Origin: Octopus vulgaris
Lineage: Eukaryota
Length of the DNA: 64,000 nucleotides
Direction: 5' to 3'
Assembly: GCA_951406725.2 (NCBI GenBank)
Contig: OX597815.1
Span: forward strand, 204,972,001-205,036,000
The position numbers and the translations under genes are program-made. Below the pieces are notes generated by a model that was given only the letters and a program-made list of their open reading frames with translations, had not been told where the DNA came from and ran no database searches. Shown one piece after another: positions 13,715-56,565 of the stretch; position 1 is the stretch's first letter, and each line of letters starts with the position of its first letter.

Positions 13715-14498
13715 TGGAAGGCGGCGAGCTGGCAGAAACGTTAGCACGCCGGGCGAAATGCTCAGCGGTATTTCGTCCGCCGCTACGTTCTGAGTTCAAA
13801 TTCCGCCGAGGTCGACTTTGCCTTTCATCCTTTCGGAGTCGATAAATTAAGTACCAGTTAAGCACTAGGGTCGATATAATCGACTTAATCCGTTTGTCTG
13901 TCCTTGTTTTTCCTCTCTGTGTTTAGCTCCTTGTGGGTAGTAAAGAAATAGGTATTTCGTCTGCCGCTACGTTCTGAGTTCAAATTCCGCCGAGGTCGAC
14001 TTTGCCTTTCATCCTTTCGGGGTCGATAAATTAAGTACCAGTTAAGCACTAGGGTCGATATGATCGACTTAATCCGTTTGTCTGTCCTTGTTTTTCCTCT
14101 CTGTGTTTAGCTCCTTGTGGGTAGTAAAGAAATAGGTATTTCGTCTGCCGCTACGTTCTGAGTTCAAATTCCGCCGAGGTCGACTTTGCCTTTCATCCTT
14201 TCGGGGTCGATAAATTAAGTACCAGTTAAGCACTTGGGTCGATATAATCGACTTAATCCGTTTGTCTGTCCTTGTTTTTCCTCTCTGTGTTTAGCTCCTT
14301 GTGGGTAGTAAAGAAATAGGTATTTCGTCTGCCGCTACGTTCTGAGTTCAAATTCCGCCGAGGTCGACTTTGCCTTTCATCCTTTCGGGGTCGATAAATT
14401 AAGTACCAGTTGCGTACTAGAGTCGATCTAATCGACTGACTCTCACCAAAAAAATAAAATAAAATAAAATTTCGGTCTTTGTGCCTAGAGTAGAAAAG
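13715..14498 (+). mobile_element. SINE family B with internal tandem array (3 x 184 bp plus partial unit)
   Basis: tRNA-like head GGCGGCGAGCTGGCAGAAACG, B box GAGTTCAAATTCC. Units start at 13769, 13953, 14137 and 14321. TSD AATATTTTAAGAA at 13702 and 14499. Confidence 0.9.
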
Positions 14499-19604: not shown

Positions 19605-19812
19605 ATTCTATATTTTCGAGATGAGAAATTCTGTACATTATTTATAATGGACGGATATAGCTCTCCAGCTTTCATCAGGTGTTCTGGTGGAATTTCGAAC
19701 CCAACCCTTCCACCAGAAGACTTGATGAAGGCTGGAGAGTACATCAGCAGAAACGTCGTGATACCAACAAACAAGATGAGGACACCTATCCGTCCATTAT
19801 AAATAATGTACA
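19605..19812. mobile_element. Fold-back PLE end with degenerate hammerhead at 19717-19762
   Basis: Inverted arms TGTACATTATTTATAATGGACGGATA / TATCCGTCCATTATAAATAATGTACA. Same family as 43305-43667. Confidence 0.7.
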
Positions 19813-19994
19813 TGGAGACATCTTTAGACAATTTTGCGCCGAGATAACCATAGAAACAGCCCGAACAATAAAATCAAGGCAGCTTTATGTAGTCTCTCGA
19901 CTGCCAGAAATAACAGTCCAATCTCCTGCAAATTAATCCCTGCAGTTTTGAAATGAAAAGGAAGGACACGTAGTATAATGTAATGCTTTTTTTT

Positions 19995-43159: not shown

Positions 43160-43433
43160 TAAAACCAGTTGGCTTTCTGTTTCTATTCTTTCTTTGTTAC
43201 TTCCCGAAACGAGATTGAAACAAGTAGTCTGAAATGTTGCAATTTCTCTTGTATATTTACTCGTCTAGACGTATTAAGGTGTAGTTATGGACATTAACCT
43301 GCTCAGTTCTATATTTAAGAGATGAGGAATTATGCACATTATTTACATTATTTACATTCGACGGAAATTTGTCCTAAGGTAGAGGACAAATTTCTACCTT
43401 AGGAATGAGAATCCAGGCTCGAAATTTCCCCAA

Positions 43434-43479
43434 GACACCTGAAGAAGGCTGCAGGATATATCAGCCGAAACGTTGTGTT
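43434..43479 (+). ncRNA. Minimal type I hammerhead ribozyme motif (copy 1)
   Basis: GACAC CTGAAGA A GGCTG-loop-CAGCC GAA ACGT T GTGTT. Confidence 0.75.
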
Positions 43480-43569
43480 AACAACAAACAAGATGAGGAC
43501 AAATATCCGTCGAATGTAAGGACAAATTTCTACCTTAGGAATGAGAATCCAGGCTCGAAATTTTCCCAA

Positions 43570-43615
43570 GACACCTGAAGAAGGCTGGAGGGTATATCAG
43601 CCGAAACGTTGTGTT
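43570..43615 (+). ncRNA. Minimal type I hammerhead ribozyme motif (copy 2)
   Basis: Same stems and core as copy 1; differences fall in loop 2. Confidence 0.75.
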
Positions 43616-43881
43616 AACAACAAACAAGATGAGGACAAATATCCGTCGAATGTAAATAACGTAACTAATTAACCTGCTCGTCTAAGTATAAATGCTTTAC
43701 AATAATCGTGTGTAGTGTCATTTATTTGAATTATTTTCAAATCAATATTGTATTTTGGGAATATAATTGGACCCTAGTATTTAACTGGTACTTATTTAAC
43801 TGAGCCTAGAAGAATGAAAAGCAAAGTTGATCTCGGCAGGATTTCAAATTAGAACGTAACTAATTAGAATACAGCAATATT

Positions 43882-44113
43882 AAGGCGGCGAGTTGGCAGA
43901 AACGTTAGCACGCCGGGCGAAATGCTTACAGGTATTTCGTCTGTCGTTACGTTCTGAGTTCAAATTCCGCCGAGGTAGACTTTGCCTTTCATCCTTTCGG
44001 GATCGATAAATTAAGTACCAGTTTCGCACTTTGTCGATGTAATCGACTTAATCCATTTGTCTGTCCTTGTTTGTCCCCTCTATGTTTAGCCCCTTGTGGT
44101 TAATAAAGAAATA
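43882..44113 (+). mobile_element. SINE family B monomer
   Basis: Head plus one unit ending AAAGAAATA. TSD TAGAAT(A/G)CAGCAATATT. Confidence 0.9.
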
Positions 44114-56035: not shown

Positions 56036-56565
56036 AATTTACAAGATAAGGGCAGAAGAAAAATTCTAATACCAAATATTTTATCCTATATCAATTATAA
56101 ATAGACTAGTGTTCACTTCCGGATTCTATCACTCTGTGAAAGTTTCTAGTTCGAATCACACGTGTCTCGAGGTGCGCCGAAGATTTTTCTATTTTGGATA
56201 TATTTGGGGTACTTAAGTCTGCTCGGGACTTAGTGCTTGCTTTTTCCATGGGTATGAGTAAGTATTTAATTTATATCTCGCGTATTTGCCGCTGAAGAGG
56301 GGAAAATTTCTTATGAATTAGCCCCGAAATTGGACCAATACGGTAATAACGAATTTTTTAGAGATTTCTATCGGTTTGTTTCGAGACGCATAAATTATAA
56401 TGGTTATCGACAATTTTTTGTTTCGGCACATTTGGCATTAGAATTTTTCTTCTGCCCTTATCTTGTAAATTATGTATAAATTTTACCTTTAAAGGCATTT
56501 TTTGATATGCTGGCCATTGATAAAATGTTTTTCCCGAAAAAAATCTTATCCTATATTAATTATAA
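56036..56565 (+). mobile_element. Non-coding PLE/retrozyme-like insertion with intact hammerhead
   Basis: TSD AGTCACGGTC(AT)n. Inverted 44-bp arm. 20-bp terminal direct repeat with period 465 bp. Confidence 0.8.
56286..56346 (+). ncRNA. Type I hammerhead ribozyme, predicted cleavage after 56340
   Basis: Stem I TTGCCG/CGGTAA, core CTGAAGA, stem II GGGG/CCCC, GAA, stem III ATTGG-A-CCAAT, cleavage triplet AUA. Confidence 0.85.

Follow-up and report, generated by a model that had tools for sequence, protein, structure and literature searches.

A tandem pair of minimal hammerhead motifs in a truncated Penelope/Poseidon-type terminal-repeat insertion of Octopus vulgaris

Introduction

In the retrotransposons Poseidon_Ac and Pen2a, the terminal repeat (pLTR) holds a hammerhead together with the first codons of the open reading frame (ORF), according to the parts of the two accounts available to us (PMC11167929, PMC3846280). 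Described pLTR insertions of Pen2a_Av and Poseidon_Ac combine this content with an inverted, 5'-truncated arm and partial tandems (PMC3846280, PMC11167929, bioRxiv 10.1101/2021.04.23.441226; each seen in part); these endonuclease-bearing elements and their insertions also have long and short 3' ends, target-site duplications (TSDs) of 8–12 bp and a reverse transcriptase (RT) followed by a C-terminal endonuclease. The locus analysed here, which lies in a 64,000-nucleotide stretch of the Octopus vulgaris genome (contig OX597815.1, positions 204,972,001–205,036,000; ‘the window’), and the family to which it belongs resemble these elements in all of these respects. Unlike the insertions in the sections available, the window insert is composed of pLTR pieces only and its tandem unit has a fold-back linker, while the pLTR of the octopus family bears a tRNA-like segment and an (AAT)n tract upstream of the hammerhead. 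In the literature outside subscription papers and Repbase, we found neither this octopus family nor any pLTR with a tRNA-like segment described.

The hammerheads themselves are like the minimal ribozymes of metazoan PLEs (Cervera and de la Pena, 2014, PMC4209133, available in part), in that helix I has 5 bp, a base is unpaired between positions 9 and 10.1, 10.1–11.1 is a G-C pair, 15.2–16.2 is palindromic and the monomer has no helix III. They differ from those described there in a helix II of 5 bp rather than 7–8, in a spacing of 136 nt rather than ∼3 kb, and in being known from sequence. In the portions at hand, dimers and trimers of minimal hammerheads cleaved weakly (PMC4209133), a single frog dimer out of nine was active (bioRxiv 10.64898/2026.07.22.740005), and the Poseidon_Ac hammerhead of the anole required the element's protein for cleavage and was dispensable for insertion (PMC11167929).

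Two further systems invite comparison. Metazoan non-LTR retrozymes, as far as the excerpts available describe them (PMC7229834; bioRxiv 10.64898/2026.07.22.740005), share with the octopus dimer head-to-tail type I hammerhead units, low GC content, a long TSD and pLTR ancestry. In contrast to them, the octopus unit is shorter than 150–450 bp, its ribozyme is minimal rather than canonical, it occupies a single locus, it has no family of the same length and it is known from DNA. The likeness to the SINE-like hammerhead repeats of schistosomes (PMC6765202, partly available) is at the level of the family, where a candidate Pol III-type promoter lies upstream of the hammerhead; unlike the schistosome case, the tRNA-like segment belongs to the 3' end of an autonomous element and is absent from the window insert.

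Results

Two minimal hammerhead motifs in a 136-bp repeat

A sequence-only reading of the window had placed two minimal hammerheads in tandem, with a 136-bp period, inside one TSD pair. The coordinates, stems and core of both motifs proved to be as claimed (Table 1), as did the period and its position between duplicated target sites. Both motifs have stem I GACAC/GTGTT, of which the final pair is G-U, the core CTGAAGA with an extra A, and stem II GGCTG/CAGCC and GAAACGTT. They thus contain what defines a minimal type I hammerhead: core positions C3–A9, G12–A15.1, U16.1 and H17, helices I and II, and a palindromic helix III. The cut sites are predicted by standard hammerhead numbering. The cleavage triplet, GUU, was checked as a cleavable NUH site; GUU is cleaved more slowly than GUC. 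The AACGTT palindrome that the earlier reading took as stem III is present, but only ACGU is available to form helix III of a dimer, since the first A and last U of AACGUU belong to the core as positions A14 and U17.

When both strands of the window were searched with a generic type I descriptor, three matches resulted, namely the motif pair and an unrelated one at 56292. This last belongs to a hammerhead-like motif at 56284–56345, with CTGAAGA, a GGGG/CCCC stem and GAAA, which may be due to chance or represent another family. Neither motif of the pair was detected by Rfam, at gathering score or at E up to 10, as expected because they are hammerheads without helix III. Rfam matches to miRNA and CRISPR models were below gathering scores, arise from simple repeats and were discarded.

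The two copies of the 136-bp repeat are 98% alike, with three mismatches. One of these (43428/43564) lies upstream of the motif, and those within it (43452/43588 and 43456/43592) are confined to loop 2, as the sequence-only reading had observed. Since loop 2 makes up 10 of the 46 motif positions, both would fall there by chance about once in 23 times, a weak signal.

Anatomy and origin of the insert

The insert is an inverted arm, a fold-back linker and two direct pieces, not a bare dimer (Table 1); the earlier description of a tandem within a TSD was right as to the tandem but had overlooked the 71-bp inverted arm and the linker. An exact 12-bp direct repeat is expected by chance with a probability of ∼5e-8 at a fixed site, or ∼2e-5 given 400 choices of boundary. 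As in described pLTR insertions with inverted or partial-tandem layout, the long 3' end is on the inverted arm and the short one on the direct copy. The upstream part of the pLTR, comprising the tRNA-like segment and (AAT)n, is absent, and with it the region in which a promoter would be expected. The match of the linker to the arm includes a base that is unlike both direct units. Because the inverted arm stops short of them, the hammerheads of the window are free of a long hairpin.

Table 1. Features of the insert, in window coordinates
Feature	Position	Strand	Basis or remark
Left target-site duplication, 12 bp	43293-43304	+	Exact direct repeat
Inverted arm, 71 bp; long 3' end of this pLTR, lacking the hammerhead	43305-43375	-	Reverse complement matches family 3' end
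Short inverted piece of unit start plus one extra base	43373-43382	-	43373-43381 is the reverse complement of 43395-43403
Locus-private 12-nt linker, fold-back copy	43383-43394	+	Exact reverse complement of 43364-43375
Tandem unit 1: linker plus 124 bp of pLTR	43383-43518	+	Repeat comparison
Minimal type I hammerhead motif 1	43434-43479	+	Predicted cut after 43474 (GUU)
Hypothetical 136-nt RNA from double cleavage	43475-43610	+	Bounded by both predicted cuts
Tandem unit 2: linker 43519-43530 plus 124 bp of pLTR	43519-43654	+	Repeat comparison
Minimal type I hammerhead motif 2	43570-43615	+	Predicted cut after 43610 (GUU)
Short 3' end of direct copy, within the family's 9-nt repeat zone	43655-43667	+	Family comparison
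Right target-site duplication, 12 bp	43668-43679	+	Exact direct repeat

Comparison with family copies bears on how the second unit arose. Two substitutions common to both units occur in 3% and 0% of family copies, and the three differences between the units are each private. Since both units contain the private linker and the two rare substitutions, they derive from a single sequence at this locus. The end of unit 1 lies 6 nt inside the 9-nt repeat zone; as only 5 of 92 family copies end at 9 nt or less, this is not the usual start of RT and a fresh RT start is unlikely. We infer that the dimer is best explained by a switch of template, on either nascent or genomic DNA.

The unit is the terminal repeat of a Penelope/Poseidon-type element

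The link of minimal hammerheads to Penelope elements drawn by the sequence-only reading was upheld: the tandem unit is pLTR sequence, from an abundant Penelope/Poseidon-type retrotransposon of this genome, with RT and a GIY-YIG-type endonuclease. Among 19 endonuclease-bearing loci, the shared 3' UTR and tRNA-like segment come next in 17 and this hammerhead is found in 12. RT motifs upstream of the endonuclease (RVT_1 match weak, E 0.0011) and the endonuclease motif CxYxIPCxCG..Y.GET were found in broken natural copies; no intact full-length copy was seen. The C-terminal part of the gene aligns with RT-bearing proteins (68% and 64%), and longer homologues of the element protein carry PF00078 and PF26215. 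The Pfam GIY-YIG model gave no match to the family's endonuclease, which we take to be of this type from the motif above. Some copies extending past the usual end read in frame from the pLTR into the ORF start, and at one locus the ORF start is joined to an endonuclease-like region, after which the hammerhead appears again. At the level of the family, therefore, one ORF encodes RT and then a C-terminal GIY-YIG-type endonuclease, as in EN+ Penelope elements, and the pLTR contains the hammerhead and the ORF start. No CxxC linker between thumb and endonuclease was found in the family sequences examined. The clade is assigned provisionally, by architecture.

Across the 2.8-Gb genome, a 23-mer downstream of the hammerhead occurs 6,198 times and a 16-mer within it 6,423 times. 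For a sample of 92 copies, picked by the downstream flank from the first 90 of the 6,198 listed places, all on one contig (C1), the 16-mer was exact in 22, which gives a rough figure, resting on one contig arm, of ∼27,000 family ends.

At the 3' end of the autonomous element (loci L193–L211), a segment with A- and B-box-like motifs is followed by (AAT)n and then by the hammerhead. From these motifs we take the segment to be tRNA-like; ARAGORN called no tRNA in 13 loci, nor did Rfam. We dropped the idea that the family is a separate tRNA-derived SINE: because the tRNA-like head comes after the endonuclease gene at 17 of the 19 loci, it belongs to the autonomous element. Short copies with the tRNA-like segment and no upstream UTR make up 27 of the 92, and may reflect either initiation by Pol III or a site prone to truncation.

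Several other sequences were encountered beside the parent element. The endonuclease families returned by a genome-wide search with the Pfam GIY-YIG model are different ones, with this hammerhead in none of 30 loci. They include a separate young family (L131, L136 and others) in which intact frames of 781 codons are numerous and a CxxC motif precedes the endonuclease, and in which the descriptor found no type I hammerhead over 30 loci. The sole longer protein matched by the 56-codon pLTR frame is a gene model of Octopus sinensis (LOC115224785 X2; P0001) with the frame at its start, in which 31 pLTR-frame codons are fused to a cysteine-rich membrane protein, through either exonisation or an annotation artefact. 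Two unlinked loci (L004 on contig C22 and L026 on C5) have in common, upstream of the pLTR, a decayed LINE-like stretch of ∼1 kb, with differing 3' flanks; it is possible that the pLTR mobilised read-through flank here.

Family copies appear to decay neutrally

Non-CpG substitutions were counted in the 77 of the 92 sampled copies that span the motif. The core had 26 in 752 positions (3.5%) and the flanks 137 in 3296 (4.2%), with 65 in 1431 in the stems and 45 in 751 in loop 2. The sequence-only reading had proposed that its dimer hypothesis would fall if the core were hit as often as the loops. Compared with the flanks, the core is indeed hit as often (p 0.41), but not compared with loop 2, than which the core has a lower rate (p 0.021); a single loop 2 position accounts for 15 of the 45 changes, and without it the count is 30 in 676. 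Genomic copies thus look neutral after insertion. The test is a weak one, because decay in dead copies is even both with and without a working ribozyme in the parent. The only large split within the core region is at the free position 7 (55 U, 20 A, 2 C). It is partly linked to a base further downstream and points to subfamilies in whose parents the core was preserved.

An intactness rule was passed by 21 of the 77 copies. That both window motifs are intact is expected, since the second is the duplicate of an intact copy.

Folding and predicted cleavage of the dimer

We considered whether the locus could be an accidental working dimer, in which the two motifs of a host transcript would swap strands, pair ACGU with ACGU and cut at both predicted sites, so that a 136-nt RNA would be released or the host transcript clipped. 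All 24 pairs of this arrangement can form and are fully nested, and both cores are intact, so that a cis dimer is topologically possible on this model. Reviews describe PLE hammerheads as cleaving as dimers (PMC6765202), and low but real dimer cleavage is on record (PMC4209133), both as given in the parts available.

In short monomers, helices I and II are the minimum-energy structure of each motif. The dimer conformation, in contrast, lies 10.3–13.4 kcal/mol above the ensemble in four contexts of 201–601 nt, a penalty that arises partly from cross-pairing of loop 2 and helix II between the copies. Eleven tandem loci were folded and gave penalties of 7.7–25.1 kcal/mol, so the 10.3 of the window dimer is among the lower values. 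Nearest-neighbour folding omits tertiary contacts of the core and the order of co-transcriptional folding; because such contacts lie outside the model, the penalty lowers the expectation of activity yet leaves room for it. Work by Lunse et al. reportedly also concerns dimer cleavage.

Besides the cost in folding, a helix III of only 4 bp counts against a working dimer, as does the ability of A14 to pair with U17. No host gene was identified in the part of the window's ORF list that was covered, and the five runs guessed to be RNA gave a share of 0.18 of sampled words, which family sequence alone could supply; the share is evidence neither for nor against transcription. The starts of family copies were also scored at the cut site: by eye, 5–7 of 30 (of 135) began there against 1–2 of 30 (of 362) at the next position, and a cruder script rule gave 9 against 4. 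There is no clear excess of cut-site starts in these copies, on a rough count whose control is inflated by a recurrent 3-nt deletion. The earlier proposal that a transcript would supply both partners in cis and release a 136-nt RNA therefore holds as far as topology is concerned, while release is unsupported by the fold, the truncation, the lack of progeny and the varied periods elsewhere in the family. Weak cis cleavage of the dimer in vitro appears possible on the model; a dimer at work in the cell we consider unlikely.

The 136-bp junction is private to the locus

The inverted-arm architecture is routine in the family: 48 of the 92 flank-selected copies, sampled from one contig arm, have an inverted arm within 900 nt, and in two a further copy lies head to tail within 400 nt. 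Genome-wide, the 16-mer formed 2 exact pairs at periods of 121–151 and 19 at 152–316. They correspond to at least 15 tandem loci including the window dimer, with periods of 87–309 bp and up to 17 hammerhead copies, counts that are lower bounds. At several of the other tandem loci, L124 among them, a TSD-like repeat likewise encloses an arm followed by a tandem. Their junctions vary by locus, many passing through the (AAT)n tract and some through the ORF start.

At the window locus, the 20-mer across the 136-bp junction has two exact matches genome-wide, both at the locus itself, and none of the 40 best-matching copies elsewhere in the family has the linker. A second junction, that of an 87-bp array and the only other one searched for, likewise had all 12 of its matches within its own locus. 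This array (L158, minus strand, in the region G000:C7:11042998–11044600) is a minisatellite of 17 hammerhead copies behind an inverted arm, many with a helix II change. Other loci (L166 at 27.709 Mb on C24, L173 at 17.292 Mb on C30, L171 and L170) are arrays of 3–6 pLTR units of 158–309 bp, those of L166 containing ∼60 nt of ORF start; they are better retrozyme candidates than the window dimer.

These tandems could be seen as a snapshot of the birth of a retrozyme, in which insertion accidents produced the window dimer and the 14 other loci, and a dimer that cleaves in cis when read through would, with its 136-nt circle, become raw material for a self-propagating retrozyme; we regard this as improbable, and as somewhat less so the working dimer discussed above. 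Less credible still is an established retrozyme, in which a 136-nt circle would have been copied by the Penelope enzyme through rolling-circle reverse transcription to yield the dimer. The tandem, the type I hammerhead and the long TSD do fit the published operational definition, in the parts available (PMC7229834; bioRxiv 10.64898/2026.07.22.740005), each of the two units contains a complete type I hammerhead, and arrays of up to 17 copies exist in the family. However, exact matching revealed no dispersed family of the same unit, and the exact junction occurs at no second locus, which largely refutes this reading. The linker is a copy of the window locus's own arm, so the 136-nt unit was born there. 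The family also has no common unit length, and the starts at the cut site are not in clear excess.

Contigs from sequencing runs X1, X4 and X5, under three organism labels, enter the insert by 24–28 nt from both flanks, and a contig of run X3 enters it from the left flank alone; this suggests an old shared insertion. The right TSD shows two changes (43673 and 43679) common to X1, X4 and X5, while the two TSDs of the assembly are identical. The flank contigs are swamped by family contigs. That the assembly collapsed or doubled one unit from two haplotypes is very hard to credit: the junction does rest on assembly sequence and the copies are nearly alike, but it joins the units cleanly head to tail and has a private linker, the layout recurs at L124 and elsewhere, and the flank contigs of the three other runs, whose reach is below the 31-nt bridging rule, are silent on unit number.

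Discussion

The anatomy of the insert, its parent element, its private junction and the neutral-looking decay of its family are established. They are best read, and with considerable confidence, as a 5'-truncated pLTR insertion with an inverted arm and a 12-bp TSD, of which the direct part was probably duplicated in place at the DNA level and which is predicted to be inert. What speaks against inertness is that both motifs are intact, that their differences fall in loop 2, that no long hairpin locks them, that the folding penalty is comparatively low for the family's tandems, and that core changes are fewer than those of loop 2. The locus is on this best reading a dead Penelope insertion and not a propagating retrozyme.

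Such a locus could have formed in four steps. The endonuclease and RT of the element would first have inserted a head-to-head pair of pLTR ends. During synthesis or repair, the growing strand would then have folded back on the arm twice, giving rise to the 9-nt inverted piece and the 12-nt linker. The linker and 124 bp would subsequently have been recopied, at insertion or later, through template switching at a microhomology of 1 nt, and each copy would have acquired one or two private substitutions afterwards. The hammerhead would have been cargo throughout, and any function would lie in the RNA of the parent element. The window pair would show weak cleavage at most, given a plus-strand host transcript across the locus.

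As one of many thousands of dead Penelope ends, the insert matters little as such. The dimer is nevertheless a convenient natural construct, being a short, intact pair of minimal hammerheads with an internal monomer control, and could help to show whether the hammerheads of metazoan Penelope elements are active when the element's protein is absent. In combination with the other tandem loci, the dimer offers a test bed for the proposal that animal retrozymes stem from locally amplified pLTRs.

Other repeats were noted in the window. A second, more diverged insertion of the family, at 19606–19813, also has an inverted arm, with a GUC cut triplet and broken helices. At 13767–14437 there is a 184-bp tandem of 3.6 copies, 97% alike, of a SINE-like repeat; this repeat recurs across the window, including at 43783–44023, where it adjoins the hammerhead insert.
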